This document shows positions 383 to 17,937 of a stretch of 64,000 bases of DNA, piece after piece. Every line of letters begins with the position of its first letter. Within the stretch, counting starts at the first letter, position 1. The stretch is from Escherichia coli (GTDB lineage: Bacteria > Pseudomonadota > Gammaproteobacteria > Enterobacterales > Enterobacteriaceae), in assembly GCF_030013205.1 (NCBI RefSeq), contig NZ_CP122648.1; one strand, 5' to 3'. Below the pieces are notes generated by a model. It was given only the letters and a program-made list of their open reading frames with translations, was not told the origin of the DNA and did not search any database. A program made the position numbers and the translations under genes.

Positions 383-3010
383 ATGAGCGACCTTGCGAGA
401 GAAATTACACCGGTCAACATTGAGGAAGAGCTGAAGAGCTCCTATCTGGATTATGCGATGTCGGTCATTGTTGGCCGTGCGCTGCCAGATGTCCGAGATG
501 GCCTGAAGCCGGTACACCGTCGCGTACTTTACGCCATGAACGTACTAGGCAATGACTGGAACAAAGCCTATAAAAAATCTGCCCGTGTCGTTGGTGACGT
601 AATCGGTAAATACCATCCCCATGGTGACTCGGCGGTTTATGATACGATCGTCCGTATGGCGCAGCCATTCTCGCTGCGTTACATGCTGGTAGACGGTCAG
701 GGTAACTTCGGTTCCATCGACGGCGACTCTGCGGCGGCAATGCGTTATACGGAAATCCGTCTGGCGAAAATTGCCCATGAACTGATGGCCGATCTCGAAA
801 AAGAGACGGTCGATTTCGTTGATAACTATGACGGCACGGAAAAAATTCCCGACGTCATGCCAACCAAAATTCCTAACCTGCTGGTGAACGGTTCTTCCGG
901 TATCGCCGTAGGTATGGCAACCAACATCCCGCCGCACAACCTGACGGAAGTCATCAACGGTTGTCTGGCGTATATCGATGATGAAGACATCAGCATTGAA
1001 GGGCTGATGGAACACATCCCGGGGCCGGACTTCCCGACGGCGGCAATCATTAACGGTCGTCGCGGTATTGAAGAAGCTTACCGTACCGGTCGTGGCAAGG
1101 TATATATCCGCGCCCGTGCCGAAGTGGAAGTTGACGCCAAAACCGGACGTGAAACCATTATCGTCCACGAAATTCCGTATCAGGTAAACAAAGCGCGCCT
1201 GATCGAGAAGATTGCGGAACTGGTAAAAGAAAAACGCGTGGAAGGCATCAGCGCGCTGCGTGACGAGTCTGACAAAGACGGTATGCGCATCGTGATTGAA
1301 GTTAAACGCGATGCGGTCGGTGAAGTTGTGCTTAACAACCTCTACTCCCAGACCCAGTTGCAGGTTTCTTTCGGTATCAACATGGTGGCATTGCATCATG
1401 GTCAGCCGAAGATCATGAACCTGAAAGACATCATCGCGGCGTTTGTTCGTCACCGCCGCGAAGTGGTGACTCGTCGTACTATTTTCGAACTGCGTAAAGC
1501 TCGCGATCGTGCTCATATCCTTGAAGCATTAGCCGTGGCACTGGCGAACATCGACCCGATCATCGAACTGATCCGTCATGCGCCGACGCCTGCAGAAGCG
1601 AAAACTGCGCTGGTTGCTAATCCGTGGCAGCTGGGCAACGTTGCCGCGATGCTCGAACGAGCGGGCGATGATGCTGCGCGTCCGGAATGGCTGGAGCCAG
1701 AGTTCGGCGTGCGTGATGGTCTGTACTACCTGACCGAACAGCAAGCTCAGGCGATTCTGGATCTGCGTTTGCAGAAACTGACCGGCCTTGAGCATGAAAA
1801 ACTGCTCGACGAATACAAAGAGCTGCTGGATCAGATCGCAGAACTGCTGCGTATTCTTGGCAGTGCCGATCGTCTGATGGAAGTGATCCGCGAAGAGCTG
1901 GAACTGGTTCGTGAACAGTTCGGTGACAAACGTCGTACTGAAATTACTGCCAACAGCGCCGACATCAACCTGGAAGATCTGATCACCCAGGAAGATGTGG
2001 TTGTGACGCTCTCTCACCAGGGCTACGTGAAGTATCAGCCGCTTTCTGAATACGAAGCGCAGCGTCGTGGCGGGAAAGGTAAATCTGCCGCACGTATTAA
2101 AGAAGAAGACTTTATTGACCGACTGCTGGTGGCGAACACCCACGACCATATTCTGTGCTTCTCCAGCCGTGGTCGCGTCTATTCGATGAAAGTCTATCAG
2201 TTGCCGGAAGCCACTCGTGGCGCGCGTGGTCGTCCGATCGTCAACCTGCTGCCGCTGGAGCAGGACGAACGTATCACTGCGATCCTGCCGGTGACCGAGT
2301 TTGAAGAAGGCGTGAAAGTCTTCATGGCGACCGCTAACGGTACCGTGAAGAAAACTGTCCTCACCGAATTCAACCGTCTGCGTACCGCCGGTAAAGTGGC
2401 GATCAAACTGGTTGACGGCGATGAGCTGATCGGCGTTGACCTGACCAGCGGCGAAGACGAAGTAATGCTGTTCTCCGCTGAAGGTAAAGTGGTGCGCTTT
2501 AAAGAGTCTTCTGTCCGTGCGATGGGCTGCAACACCACCGGTGTTCGTGGTATTCGTTTAGGCGAAGGCGATAAAGTCGTCTCTCTGATCGTGCCTCGTG
2601 GCGATGGCGCAATCCTCACCGCAACGCAGAACGGTTATGGTAAACGTACCGCAGTGGCGGAATACCCGACTAAGTCGCGTGCGACGAAAGGGGTTATCTC
2701 CATCAAGGTTACCGAACGTAACGGTTTAGTGGTTGGCGCGGTGCAGGTAGATGACTGCGACCAGATCATGATGATCACCGATGCCGGTACGCTGGTACGT
2801 ACTCGCGTTTCGGAAATCAGCATCGTGGGCCGTAACACCCAGGGCGTGATCCTCATCCGTACTGCGGAAGATGAAAACGTAGTGGGTCTGCAACGTGTTG
2901 CTGAACCGGTTGACGAGGAAGATCTGGATACCATCGACGGCAGTGCCGCGGAAGGGGACGATGAAATCGCTCCGGAAGTGGACGTTGACGACGAGCCAGA
3001 AGAAGAATAA
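383..3010 (+). CDS. gyrA: DNA gyrase subunit A
   Basis: 875-aa ORF starting [53 protein letters not shown], active-site region [11 protein letters not shown], acidic C-terminal tail; full-length GyrA. Confidence 0.97.
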
Positions 3011-3158: not shown

Positions 3159-10005
<6,847 letters not shown>

Positions 10006-12509: not shown

Positions 12510-13694
12510 TTAATTCAACCGTTCAATCACCATCGCAATTCCCTGGCCGCCACCAATGCACAGTGTTGCCAGCCCCAGCGTTTTATCGCGCGCCTGCATG
12601 GCATGTAATAGTGTGACCAGAATACGAGCACCACTGGCACCGATAGGATGCCCGAGCGCGATGGCCCCGCCGTTGACATTCACTTTCTCAGAATCAAAGC
12701 CCAGGGTTTTCCCAACGGCAAGGAACTGTGCAGCAAATGCTTCATTAGCCTCAATGAGATCAATATCCGCCAGTTGCAGCCCCGCCAGTTGTAACGCTTT
12801 TTGTGTGGCAGGTACTGGCCCCATACCCATCAATGCGGGGGGCACGCCACCGCTGGCATAACTTTTAATGCGAGCCAGGGGGGTAAGGCCTGCTGCCAGC
12901 GCCGCAGATTCTTCCATAATCACCAGAGCGGCAGCACCGTCGTTAATACCAGACGCGTTCCCGGCGGTGACTGTTCCTGCTTTATCGAAGGCCGGGCGCA
13001 ATGCGCCTAACGCTTCAGTCGTAGAATCCGCTTTCGGGAATTCGTCTTGACTGAAGACGAAGGTTTTCTTCCGAGTGACAACATTTACCGGGACGATTTC
13101 GGCTGTAAAAGCACCGGACTCAATTGCGGCTGCCGCTTTACGCTGTGAATGTAGCGCCAGTTCATCCTGCATTTCTCGGGTAATTCCGTACTCTTTGGCC
13201 ACGTTCTCGGCGGTAATCCCCATATGATAACCATGGGTGGCGCACATCAGACCATCGCGCAGGATTACGTCATAAACCTGTCCGTCTCCAAGACGATAAC
13301 CAGAGCGTGCTTTTGCATCGAGTAAGTAGGGCGCTAAACTCATATTTTCCATACCCCCCGCCACAATGCTTTGCGCCTGACCTGCCTGAATTGCCTGGGC
13401 GGCAAGCGCCACACTTTTAAGACCCGAACCACACACTTTATTGACCGTGAATCCGCACACCGTTTCTGCCAGCCCGCTTTTTAACAGTGCCTGACGTGCC
13501 GGATTTTGCCCCAACCCGGCTTGCAACACGTTACCCATAATCACTTCATCAATGTGTAGTGAATCGATTTTTGCACGTTCAATGGCGGCTTTAATTACTG
13601 TCGCCCCCAGGTCGATGGCGCTGGTGGAAGCGAGTGAACCGTTAAAACTACCGATAGCAGTACGTACCGCACTGACGATGACACAATTTTTCAT
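12510..13694 (-). CDS. atoB: acetyl-CoA acetyltransferase (thiolase II)
   Basis: 394-aa [26 protein letters not shown], thiolase active-site Cys context ([11 protein letters not shown]) and C-terminal [13 protein letters not shown]. Confidence 0.95.
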
Positions 13695-13724
13695 TTTTTA
13701 TTCCTTCTGTCTGTAGGGTTGCCG

Positions 13725-15047
13725 TCAGAACAGCGTTAAACCAACGACGAAAATGACGCCGGAGAAGAGCAGGGCAGTGATGCAATAGCCCATGATGTCG
13801 CGGACACCGAGTCCGGCGATTGCCAGTGCTGGCAGCGCCCAGAATGGTTGTGCCATGTTCATCCATTGCTCGCCGTAGGCGATCGCCATTACCGATTTAC
13901 CGAGATCAGCGCCCAGCGCCTGGGCTGCGGGTATCACGAAAGGTCCCTGAATAACCCAGTGACCGCCGCCAGACGGAACGGCGAAGTTAATCAGTGCAGA
14001 ACTAAAAAAGGTCATTACCGGGAAGGTGTCTTTGTTCGCAACATTGATGAAGAATTCGGTAATGAGTCCGCCCAGACCGGAGTGCTCCATCATCAGTTGG
14101 ATCCCAGCGTAGAAGGGGAATTGCACCAGAATACCGGCAGTACTGCGTGCTGCCGCGCTGATAGCACGCATATAAGCCATTGGCGTTTTATGTAGCAGCA
14201 GACCCGCAATCATAAACATCAGGTTGACGGTATTGATGGTGATGTTGAAGCCATGTTCGCTGAAGTACATCGCAAGGTAAGCGATACCGAGTGCGCCGAT
14301 GATCAACGTCAGAATGCGGCTTTCTTCCAGTCGCTCGGATGGTGGGGCATCTTTCGGTAGCTGCTTTTGGAAATCAGCCTCTTCCATGAGTAGTTTCGGA
14401 TCGATACTCACCACGTCAGACGGTTTTGGCATCATCATGCGGGTGATAAATGGCATCACCACAATCAACGCCACAGTGATGAAAATGTTAAAACCACTGA
14501 ACAGAGTATCGCCCACCGGGATCAGCCCGGCGATATGCTCAACCGGGTTGCCCGGTGTTGCAGCCAACAGAGGCATTGAGCCAGAGAAACCGCCACCCCA
14601 GGTGAGAAAACCAATGTAGGCGCAGGCAATGAGCAACGGATAATCAGAACCGGGTACTCGGCGGGCGACTTCACGGGCAAACATTGCGCCGACAACCAAA
14701 CCAAATCCCCAGTTGATGACACAAGCGACTGAACCGAAGAAAGTAACCAGCATGACGCCCTGTACGGGCGTCTTTGCGGCGGAGGCGGCAGTACGCAGCA
14801 AACTTTTTACCGGAGCAGAGCTGGCAAGGGCATGACCGGTAACGATGATAAGCGCCATCTGCATACCAAACGCCAGCAAGTTCCAGAAACCGTCACCCCA
14901 CATTTTCACCATGCTGATCGGCGTTTGTGGTGTTAACCAAAGCGCGATCACGAAAGTTAGCAATGTCAGCAACATGGCAAAGATCAGTGGATCGGGAAGC
15001 CACCGGCTGACAAAACGCGTCATAAAACGCGATATGCGACCAATCAT
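13725..15047 (-). CDS. atoE: short-chain fatty acid transporter
   Basis: 440-aa highly hydrophobic multi-pass ORF between atoA and atoB; overlaps the atoA stop. Confidence 0.9.
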   Translation of the reverse strand: MIGRISRFMTRFVSRWLPDPLIFAMLLTLLTFVIALWLTPQTPISMVKMWGDGFWNLLAFGMQMALIIVTGHALASSAPVKSLLRTAASAAKTPVQGVMLVTFFGSVACVINWGFGLVVGAMFAREVARRVPGSDYPLLIACAYIGFLTWGGGFSGSMPLLAATPGNPVEHIAGLIPVGDTLFSGFNIFITVALIVVMPFITRMMMPKPSDVVSIDPKLLMEEADFQKQLPKDAPPSERLEESRILTLIIGALGIAYLAMYFSEHGFNITINTVNLMFMIAGLLLHKTPMAYMRAISAAARSTAGILVQFPFYAGIQLMMEHSGLGGLITEFFINVANKDTFPVMTFFSSALINFAVPSGGGHWVIQGPFVIPAAQALGADLGKSVMAIAYGEQWMNMAQPFWALPALAIAGLGVRDIMGYCITALLFSGVIFVVGLTLF

Positions 15048-15694
15048 AAATCACCCCGTTGCGTATTCAGATCGGCGGCAACTTCAAACCGAGCTTCTGT
15101 TTTGGCACACACGGTGGCTAAATCACACCCGTCGGCAATTTCGGTGAGCCACATTTTGCCGTCAATAAAACGAAAGACAGCCAGTTCAGTAACCAGCATA
15201 TGCACCGCATGTTGCGCAGTGAGTGGCATGGTGCAGCGGCGCAAAATTTTTGCTGAACCATCTTTGGCACAATGTTCCATGGCGATGATCACTTTGCGCG
15301 ACCCGGTCACCAGATCCATCGCGCCACCCATACCGGGCACCATTTTCCCAGGCACTACCCAGTTCGCGAGGTTTGCTTCTTCGTCTACTTGCAAACCGCC
15401 GAGCACGCAGGCATCAATATGACCGCCGCGGATTAGCGCAAATGACATGGCGCTATCAAACATGGCTGCACCGGGTAAAACACCGCACGGTTGTCCGCCA
15501 GCGTTCACCAGATCTGGATGCGCTGTCGTGACCGGGCCTAAACCGAGGAAGCCGTTTTCCGATTGCAGAGTGATATGAATACCCTCCGGTAAATAATTGG
15601 CGACCATTGTGGGTAAACCGATCCCTAAGTTAACGATGTCACCATCACGAAGCTCTTGCGCCACACGGCGCGCAATACGTTGTTTCGCATCCAT
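15044..15694 (-). CDS. atoA: acetate CoA-transferase subunit beta
   Basis: 216-aa [32 protein letters not shown], CoA-transferase family II signature; coupled to atoD. Confidence 0.92.
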   Translation of the reverse strand: MDAKQRIARRVAQELRDGDIVNLGIGLPTMVANYLPEGIHITLQSENGFLGLGPVTTAHPDLVNAGGQPCGVLPGAAMFDSAMSFALIRGGHIDACVLGGLQVDEEANLANWVVPGKMVPGMGGAMDLVTGSRKVIIAMEHCAKDGSAKILRRCTMPLTAQHAVHMLVTELAVFRFIDGKMWLTEIADGCDLATVCAKTEARFEVAADLNTQRGDL

Positions 15695-16356
15695 TATTTG
15701 CTCTCCTGTGAAACGATGATGTGGTCGATAACGGCACCAGGGGTGACAATATGGTCAGGTTGCAGCTCGCCGGTTTCGACCAGTTCATCTGGCTCTACCA
15801 GCGTGATATCAGCCGCAAGGGCTATCAGGGGGTTAAAGTTGCGGGCGCTAAGTTGATAGGTCAGGTTGCCAAGTGTGTCGCAACGATGAGCGCGAATTAG
15901 CGCCAGGTCGGCGCGCAGTGGGCGTTCGAGCAGCCAGGTTTTACCGTCGAGTGTCAGTGTCTGTTTGCCTTCCTCTACGACGGTGCCGACACCCGTTGGG
16001 GTGAGAAAACCACCAAGTCCAGCTCCGCCACAGCGAATTTGCTCGATTAGCGTACCTTGCGGCACCAGAACGACGTCCATCTCACCAGATATCATGCGCC
16101 GACCTGTTTCCGGGTTGGTGCCGATATGTGAAGCAATCACTTTGCGGACTCGACCATTGACGATGAGCGGACCGATGCCGGTATCAACAAACGCGGTATC
16201 ATTGGCTATCAATGTCAGGTCGCGAACACCTGATTCCAGTAATGCTTCAACCAGGCGGGATGGAGTGCCAATCCCCATAAATCCGCCCACCATGATGGTC
16301 ATGCCGTCACGAAAGAAGCCGGTGGCATCTTGTAATGTCATCAATTTTGTTTTCAT
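15694..16356 (-). CDS. atoD: acetate CoA-transferase subunit alpha
   Basis: 220-aa [35 protein letters not shown], CoA-transferase family I. Confidence 0.92.
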
Positions 16357-16401
16357 TTTTTATCCCTCTTGCATACACCGTTGTGGGTACAGTCAGGGAA
16401 T

Positions 16402-16419
16402 AGCAAGGGGAGTGCCAGA
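16402..16419 (-). promoter_or_regulatory. sigma-54 (-24/-12) promoter of atoDAEB
   Basis: Minus strand reads CTGGCACTCCCCTTGCT: GG and GC separated by 10 nt, matching the TGGCAC-N5-TTGCW sigma-54 consensus, about 45 bp upstream of the atoD start. Confidence 0.55.
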
Positions 16420-16499
16420 ATGAGATTATTGGGTTTTGTTATTTAACTAATTGAATATGAAGGGATAAATTGGATGAGGATTTATAAGGAGAATGAGCG

Positions 16500-16540
16500 G
16501 CTATGCAGAAAATTGCGCACTGTGCAAATTTCTGCATAGC
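16500..16540. promoter_or_regulatory. AtoC enhancer-type binding site (imperfect 20-bp inverted repeat)
   Basis: GCTATGCAGAAAATTGCGCAC/TGTGCAAATTTCTGCATAGC palindrome between atoC and the sigma-54 promoter; matches the recalled AtoC cis element. Confidence 0.5.
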
Positions 16541-16551
16541 AAGTTTTGGCG

Positions 16552-17937
16552 TTATACATCCGCCGGATCGATACCGTATTCCTGGAGTTTATACATCAAT
16601 GCACGGCGACTGATGCCCAGCATTAAAGCAGTGCGGGTTCGGTTTCCTTCTTGTTGTTCCAGCACTTCCATAATGATGCGTTTTTCGACGCGTTTAATTT
16701 CCTCTTTTAAATTACGCTCTCCGACAGGGGATGTTTTTACCTCGCCAGCATTACAGACTGGCTGACGAATCTGCGGCGGAAGATCCTCAGAAAAAATGAT
16801 CGGGCCTGAGTTCATCACGACGGCGCGTTCAATAACGTTGGAAAGCTCTCGAATATTTCCCGGCCATGACCAGGCGGTAAGCAGTGACATTGCCATCGGA
16901 TCGATGTCGATAATATCGCGCTGATTCTCACTACTGAATTTTTGCAAAAAGTGATTAGCTAACAGGGAAATATCTTCCCGGCGATCGCGCAGAGGCGGCA
17001 GTATTAAATGAATAACGTTAAGGCGATAAAAGAGATCTTCACGGAAGGTGCCTTCTTTTACCATTGCCTGCAAGTCACGGTTGGTGGCAGCAATGATGCG
17101 GATATCAACTTTTATGGTCTGATGGCCGCCAATCCGTTCAAATTCCCGTTCCTGCAGAATGCGTAGTAATTTGGCTTGCAGTACGAGCGGCATTTCGCCA
17201 ATTTCGTCGAGGAGCAGAGTACCTTCGTTGGCACGTTCAAATAATCCCTGACGCAAGGTTTGTGCACCAGTAAATGCACCTTTTTCATGACCAAACAGTT
17301 CACTTTCGAGCAACGATTCCGGCAGCGCCGCGCAGTTGACTTTAATGAACGGCCCCTTTGCCCGCCGCGAATTGTAGTGAATCGCTCTGGCAATCAACTC
17401 TTTCCCGGTGCCGCTTTCACCGCTAATCAAGACGCTGGCCTGAGAAAGGGCAATTTTGGCGGTGTCTTTGCAGATGTCCATCATCGCCGGGCTGTTGGTG
17501 AGAATGTGCCCCCATTGCCAGCTAGTGCTCAGTGCCTGGTGCAGATGGCGGATCTCTTTTTTCATTGACTGGAGTTGTAAAGCGCGCTGAACGATTAAAT
17601 TCAACTCATCGAGATCAAACGGTTTGATAACATAGTCGAAGGCCCCGCAGCGTAGCGCTTCGACGGCGGTTTCCACTTCAGCATAGGCCGTCATCAGAAT
17701 AACGGGGGTCCGTGTCTCATGGCTGCGCATCTCCTTGAGTGCCTTGATGCCGTCCATCTCTGGCATGCGGATATCCATCAACACCACGTCAGGGTGAATA
17801 TCAGCAAACAGGTGTAATGCTGTGCGTCCGTTGTTCGCACAATGTGTTTCGAAACCTTGTAGTGCAAAAGCGGTGCTCAGCATACGGCGAACATTATCTT
17901 CATCATCCACAATAAGGATGCGATTAATAGCAGTCAT
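16552..17937 (-). CDS. atoC: sigma-54-dependent response regulator AtoC
   Basis: 461-aa ORF: receiver domain (ILIVDDEDNVRRML), AAA+ sigma-54 activator core (GESGTGKE, GAFTGA), C-terminal HTH. Confidence 0.95.
   Translation of the reverse strand: MTAINRILIVDDEDNVRRMLSTAFALQGFETHCANNGRTALHLFADIHPDVVLMDIRMPEMDGIKALKEMRSHETRTPVILMTAYAEVETAVEALRCGAFDYVIKPFDLDELNLIVQRALQLQSMKKEIRHLHQALSTSWQWGHILTNSPAMMDICKDTAKIALSQASVLISGESGTGKELIARAIHYNSRRAKGPFIKVNCAALPESLLESELFGHEKGAFTGAQTLRQGLFERANEGTLLLDEIGEMPLVLQAKLLRILQEREFERIGGHQTIKVDIRIIAATNRDLQAMVKEGTFREDLFYRLNVIHLILPPLRDRREDISLLANHFLQKFSSENQRDIIDIDPMAMSLLTAWSWPGNIRELSNVIERAVVMNSGPIIFSEDLPPQIRQPVCNAGEVKTSPVGERNLKEEIKRVEKRIIMEVLEQQEGNRTRTALMLGISRRALMYKLQEYGIDPADV

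Follow-up and report, generated by a model that had tools for sequence, protein, structure and literature searches.

Intact sigma-54 control elements of atoDAEB next to an atoS gene frameshifted in a CAGG repeat in Escherichia coli

The ato locus and its control region

The window, i.e., the whole stretch of 64,000 nucleotides of Escherichia coli DNA analyzed in this work, has the gene order gyrA, yfaA/T/S/Q/P, atoBEAD, atoC, atoS, rcsC, rcsB, rcsD, and from rcsD on micF/ompC, apbE, ada, alkB, yojI, mqo, eco, nap, ccm, and narP. The ato genes are all carried on the minus strand (Table 1). A 3.65-kb query running from atoD' through atoC and atoS to rcsC' was found at 100% identity in complete genomes of swine enterotoxigenic E. 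coli (ETEC) and O139:H1 strains, among them K_EC180, ETEC1748, ETEC4067, and W13-16. On the gyrA side of the window, the quinolone-resistance-determining region of gyrA (383-700, plus strand) is wild type, with S83 and D87, and yfaS, which we take to be a pseudogene in K-12, forms a long unbroken open reading frame (ORF) of the alpha-2-macroglobulin family (5386-10005, plus strand; 1539 codons from the first ATG). The annotated length of yfaS in K_EC180 is 4515 nt.

Table 1. Coordinates of the features of the ato locus, numbered along the window
Feature	Position	Strand	Description
atoDAEB operon	12510-16356	-	0-5 amino-acid differences per protein vs K-12
atoB	12510-13694	-	Full length, no internal stop; 5 substitutions vs K-12
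atoE	13725-15047	-	Full length, no internal stop; 1 substitution vs K-12
atoA	15044-15694	-	Full length, no internal stop; 1 substitution vs K-12
atoD	15694-16356	-	Full length, no internal stop; 0 substitutions vs K-12
Sigma-54 (RpoN) -24/-12 element	16402-16417	-	TGGCACTCCCCTTGCT, TGGCAC-N5-TTGCT; perfect consensus match, same as K-12
Candidate IHF-like site	16444-16456	-	ATTCAATTAGTTA, 1 mismatch to WATCAANNNNTTR; script scan, candidate by consensus match only
AtoC enhancer (UAS)	16500-16540		Two inverted 20-bp half-sites, 1 nt between (20+1+20); repeat and consensus scans
atoC	16552-17937	-	461 codons, unbroken; sigma-54 enhancer-binding response regulator
atoS pseudogene	17934-19756	-	1823 nt vs 1827 nt in K-12; single 4-bp gap
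Residual native-frame atoS ORF	17934-19310	-	GTG (Val151) to stop; 458 codons, AtoS residues 151-608
Premature TGA	19292-19294	-	Closes 154-aa AtoS N-terminal fragment; translation from ATG 19756
Frameshift site	19310-19317	-	(CAGG)2 for functional (CAGG)3; alignment with K-12 and CFSAN018748

Analysis of the sequence upstream of atoD identified a single match to TGGCAC-N5-TTGCW, the only one in the 64-kb window, where 0.11 would be expected by chance. Its GG (16416-16415) and GC (16404-16403) dinucleotides are 10 bp apart, and the -12 GC precedes the atoD ATG (16356) by 47 nt on the same strand. In K-12, binding of the RpoN holoenzyme at the atoC-atoD spacer has been reported by gSELEX (PMC8743547). 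No sigma-70-like promoter for atoD was detected in the region 16250-16700, and we rejected an alternative promoter of that type as the driver of atoD. An Rfam scan detected no RNA element in the ato control region; its matches in the window lay elsewhere, namely, the MicF antisense sRNA upstream of ompC, as expected at the ompC locus (26509-26602, minus strand, 116.8 bits), and naRNA4 (CssrE, a nucleoid-associated ncRNA) in the rcsC-rcsB intergenic region (22772-22848, plus strand, 73.4 bits).

Further upstream is a palindrome whose arms, at 16500-16519 (GCTATGCAGAAAATTGCGCA) and 16521-16540 (reverse complement GCTATGCAGAAATTTGCACA), are 90% complementary. The AtoC half-site consensus GCTATGCAGAAAWTTGCRCA fits both arms exactly, i.e., 2 matches for 0.07 expected. 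The ChIP-positive AtoC sites of K-12 atoD are GCTATGCAGAAATTTGCACA at -184 to -165 and GCTATGCAGAAAATTGCGCA at -163 to -144 from the gene start (PMC3118216, Table 5). Counted from the atoD ATG, the arms in the window (16540-16500) span -184 to -144, and thus they have the same offsets as the K-12 sites. According to the summary by Pilalis et al. (2011, PMC3118216), the AtoC site is a 40-bp palindrome that governs both the inducibility by acetoacetate and the sigma-54 dependence of expression.

From the center of the palindrome down to the -12 GC is 117 bp, and the spacer between enhancer and promoter is rich in A+T (69.5%, compared with 48.4% for the window). Sigma-54 promoters have their enhancer 80-150 bp upstream, often with an IHF-induced bend in between. 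A candidate IHF-like site, the single one in the spacer, is located between the two elements. On the plus strand, a 90-codon ORF (16493-16765), which probably occurs by chance, begins immediately ahead of the palindrome and extends into the 3' end of atoC, to which it is antisense.

Alignment of the segment 16340-16560 with K-12 MG1655 gave 97% identity, with both motifs identical base for base, and the 195-bp atoC-atoD intergenic region is likewise 97% identical. The five single-base differences all fall outside the motifs, four in the intergenic spacer and one in the last codons of atoC. A first-pass annotation of this DNA had placed an intact -24/-12 element and an intact 20-bp inverted repeat at 16400-16545 and had proposed their alignment with the mapped K-12 elements as a check. 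Its coordinates and motif sequences were accurate, and the alignment revealed no mismatch and the same offsets from the ATG. Judged by these matches, this is the canonical, enhancer-dependent E. coli promoter for the atoDAEB operon. When a degenerate form of the AtoC palindrome was searched for in 100,044 species genomes, the E. coli representative was the sole match, which left no basis for a cross-genus footprint.

The regulator gene was also found to be intact, as the first-pass annotation had it. AtoC is identical to its K-12 counterpart at 460 of 461 positions, A403S being the sole change, and comprises the Pfam domains Response_reg (REC), Sigma54_activat (AAA+), and HTH_8 (Fis-type HTH). 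The phospho-acceptor D55 and I129 are both retained. In strain LS5218, the I129S change makes AtoC constitutive independently of the kinase (PMC5699524); this known atoC(Con) change is absent from the window. The protein accession with A403S, WP_000125284.1, is also annotated in CFSAN018748, whose atoS is intact, arguing that A403S is not compensatory. We thus ruled out the known constitutive form of AtoC. As a distinct atoC promoter, patoC, has been reported (PMC1784093), AtoC is probably still made in this genome.

The four-base-pair deletion in atoS

Functional atoS alleles read TTCAGGCAGGCAGGTG where the window reads TTCAGGCAGGTG, i.e., one CAGG unit is gone. The (CAGG)3 tract corresponds to nt 436-447 of K-12 atoS, and the missing unit to nt 440-443. 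The frameshift that had been called in atoS is therefore a single 4-bp deletion relative to both K-12 and CFSAN018748, and the gene is annotated as "frameshifted" by PGAP in K_EC180, a genome 100% identical over the query. Within the 3-kb stretch compared with CFSAN018748, the only single-nucleotide polymorphism (SNP) is at window position 19465, upstream of the frameshift; it causes the change G98S in the N-terminal domain of AtoS.

The reading frame that starts at the atoS ATG encodes 149 native residues, through R149, followed by CAAIF and a stop at codon 155. A functional AtoSC system has an uninterrupted 608-codon sensor kinase gene, and the window contains none. A Pfam search of the 154-aa fragment identified no domain. 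In full-length AtoS, Pfam places HAMP from near residue 209, followed by PAS, HisKA, and HATPase, and the translation has a hydrophobic stretch ahead of HAMP at about residues 190-210. The break falls N-terminal to the hydrophobic stretch and HAMP, in what is, by standard kinase topology, the presumed periplasmic sensing domain.

Two ways of restoring the frame were considered and rejected. A compensating second indel is inconsistent with the alignment to K-12, which has a single 4-bp gap. Ribosomal frameshifting was rejected by inspection of the sequence: a -1 shift would be needed within 16 nt, where there is no X_XXY_YYZ heptamer, and the UUU-UGA context at the stop would favor a +1 shift, i.e., into the wrong frame.

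Downstream of the lesion, the native frame is open to the end of the gene. The residual ORF has 3 substitutions relative to K-12 and encodes the hydrophobic stretch (presumed TM2), HAMP, PAS, HisKA, and HATPase. Translation might restart at the GTG at 19310 (Val151), which overlaps the slippage site and has the premature stop 16 nt beyond it, and yield a kinase or phosphatase, AtoS(151-608), that is blind to the signal. The preservation of all cytoplasmic domains in the native frame with so few substitutions would fit such a restart, as would a report that overexpression of cyto-AtoS (232-608) together with AtoC raised the activity of a fliA-promoter reporter and that AtoSC enhanced the atoDAEB promoter (PMC10963238). 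However, the GTG is preceded, at 3 nt, by no more than a 3-nt AGG, a poor ribosome-binding site, and the product would be devoid of TM1. The small number of substitutions is explained equally well by a young lesion, and other lineages with the same deletion have later broken distal atoS or apparently deleted the operon (see below), suggesting a remnant without retained function. We therefore regard a functional restart product as very unlikely.

A literature search for pseudogenized atoS in E. coli from pigs returned nothing relevant; the atoS mutation described in PMC2784333 is a missense change without relation to the frameshift.

Recurrence of the (CAGG)2 allele

We determined the distribution of the allele using a 68-nt query across the atoS junction, which matched 3925 of 5426 complete E. 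coli genomes. The (CAGG)2 allele was present without a gap in about 24 of these 3925 atoS-bearing genomes, and about 3896 aligned with a 4-bp gap. The swine ETEC/O139:H1 clade accounts for 17 of the roughly 24 carriers, all independently assembled. The other seven are GF31, 500111, E1, 214-4, FORC_042, 2018-05-5CC, and VTB97420v, and in all of them atoS is annotated as "frameshifted." In the carriers whose fetched locus spans the intergenic region, both cis motifs are kept exactly.

This distribution bears on whether the frameshift is genuine. Indels in short repeats are a known class of sequencing or assembly error, and an artefact would leave atoS truly intact; nothing specific points to one here. 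The allele is shared by 17 related complete genomes, which come from several countries and sequencing projects, and by 7 unrelated ones, and on these grounds we rejected a sequencing artefact, to which we give next to no credence.

Compared across 3 kb surrounding the start of atoS, the carriers form at least four haplotype groups that are 14-39 SNPs apart. For two of these, a genome with an intact atoS is close: the window differs from CFSAN018748 by 1 SNP, and the 214-4 group differs from K-12 by 4-6 SNPs. The deletion has thus arisen more than once, and (CAGG)n in atoS looks like a small recurrent slippage hotspot, which would account for the same frameshift in unrelated genomes. It follows that the (CAGG)2 allele should not serve as a clonal marker in comparative studies. 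Given the intact-atoS relative only 1 SNP away in 3 kb, the lesion in this genome is, as far as the alignments indicate, a young one, and its youth would explain why no other decay is seen at the ato locus.

Repeats that gain and lose units in a coding region raise the question of phase variation, i.e., of (CAGG)n acting as a contingency switch that turns AtoSC signaling reversibly off and on. Loss of a unit on at least four haplotype backgrounds would agree with such a switch, as would the gain of one: a (CAGG)4 query detected the extra unit in 2-3 genomes (ZF31 and ZF34). However, the tract is only 3 units long, a number that holds exactly in about 99% of the genomes with atoS, the swine clade is OFF in each of its 17 members, and irreversible IS1 damage accumulates in OFF lineages. 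Contingency loci typically have long tracts of 5 or more units, with ON and OFF alleles in one clone; here the tract is short and the clade uniformly OFF. Phase variation at atoS is accordingly judged extremely unlikely.

The IS1 damage was observed in two carriers. In GF31 (fetched locus L004, 4611-6145), IS1A truncates atoC and is followed by a truncated hypothetical ORF and then yfaT, and atoDAEB appears to be missing. In 2018-05-5CC (fetched locus L009, 4335-5391), IS1A interrupts atoS in its distal part. Both cases are consistent with a dead AtoSC system. Moreover, neither atoS nor the ato control region was matched in about 1500 of the 5426 complete genomes, indicating that the locus is dispensable and accessory within the species.

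On a broader view, the (CAGG)3 tract, which lies where atoS encodes its presumed sensing domain, could be a recurrent and perhaps reversible mutational switch by which gut-adapted E. coli lineages repeatedly shut off AtoSC signaling. We consider this very improbable. If it were true, the catabolism of acetoacetate and short-chain fatty acids and the reported effects of AtoSC on flagellar genes would be shut off, and the retained promoter, atoC, and AtoS(151-608) ORF would allow quick reversion or provide a residual, signal-blind kinase.

Predicted loss of induction and relation to known systems

In the established pathway, acetoacetate triggers autophosphorylation of the membrane kinase AtoS, which in turn phosphorylates AtoC; the phosphorylated regulator, bound at the palindrome, then uses ATP to open the RpoN complex at -24/-12 (PMC3118216, PMC10963238). 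The contribution of each component has been probed in K-12 with a Pato-GFP plasmid, which did not respond to acetoacetate in atoSC-, atoS- (Keio JW2213), or atoC- strains (PMC7618054). The authors of that study concluded that all components are required and that, under the conditions used, Pato is activated by no other two-component system (TCS).

We propose the following sequence of events for this genome. Replication slippage removed one CAGG of (CAGG)3 from atoS, truncating AtoS after residue 149, ahead of the hydrophobic stretch and HAMP. Without the kinase, AtoC would not be phosphorylated upon addition of acetoacetate, and Pato would stay silent. Both cis motifs, atoC, and the structural genes atoDAEB are unchanged; atoS alone is broken. 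We assign a probability of roughly 0.8 to this reading, i.e., that the known ato switch is intact beside an atoS broken by slippage and that acetoacetate induction is lost in this lineage. The first-pass annotation had called the operon likely uninducible by acetoacetate unless another donor phosphorylated AtoC, a view with which the data on the Keio atoS knockout (PMC7618054) and the lack of I129S agree. Taken together, the sequence and the K-12 knockout data indicate that acetoacetate induction is probably lost in this strain.

The operon might nevertheless be expressible without AtoS if AtoC were phosphorylated by acetyl phosphate or by a non-cognate kinase, so that Pato would follow the metabolic state of the cell. 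AtoC and all cis elements are intact, patoC could supply the regulator, and atoDAEB is strongly upregulated in an anaerobic ackA mutant (PMC7047895). The latter increase could come from acetyl phosphate or from internally made acetoacetate; the authors credit internally made acetoacetate, and their strain was atoS+. Furthermore, the K-12 single knockout of atoS gave no Pato response, and its authors saw no role for another TCS at Pato in the conditions of their assay (PMC7618054). Expression that bypasses AtoS is thus unlikely, and a promoter that is intact but silent is the most likely state of this genome.

For the porcine ETEC/O139:H1 lineage, this state predicts an inability to induce the catabolism of acetoacetate and short-chain fatty acids, and AtoSC-dependent phenotypes may be altered as well. 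Its importance beyond strain annotation is small. Promoter, enhancer, and AtoS dependence are already textbook matter for K-12, and the atoS pseudogene is already flagged in RefSeq. The small addition made here, drawn from sequence comparisons, is that the atoS lesion is the loss of one unit in a (CAGG)3 microsatellite and that it recurs on several backgrounds.

The closest known system is the K-12 atoDAEB promoter, Pato, with its palindromic AtoC enhancer, reportedly described by Matta et al. in 2007. The palindrome and the -24/-12 element are the same in both, as are their distances from the atoD ATG, whereas the window has five base differences outside the motifs and a pseudogene in place of the upstream cognate kinase gene. 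With respect to the kinase, the nearest counterpart is Keio JW2213. Both genomes are devoid of AtoS function and have intact atoC, Pato, and atoDAEB, and the expected phenotype is the same, i.e., no response to acetoacetate. Unlike the clean deletion in JW2213, the lesion in the window arose naturally, by slippage of 4 bp, and what remains is a 154-aa N-terminal fragment plus a C-terminal ORF that would be either untranslated or possibly re-initiated.

With NtrC-type promoters such as glnAp2, the control region shares sites for a bacterial enhancer-binding protein (bEBP) 100-150 bp upstream, an A+T-rich spacer, a GG-N10-GC core, and possibly bending of the spacer by IHF, for which the window offers a candidate site only. 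It differs from them by its single pair of palindromic sites specific for AtoC. The tract in atoS resembles the tetranucleotide contingency loci of the Haemophilus lic type in that it lies in a coding region and that recurrent changes in the number of units toggle the reading frame. In contrast to those loci, the atoS tract has 3 units, its variants amount to less than 1%, and they look like one-way pseudogenization.
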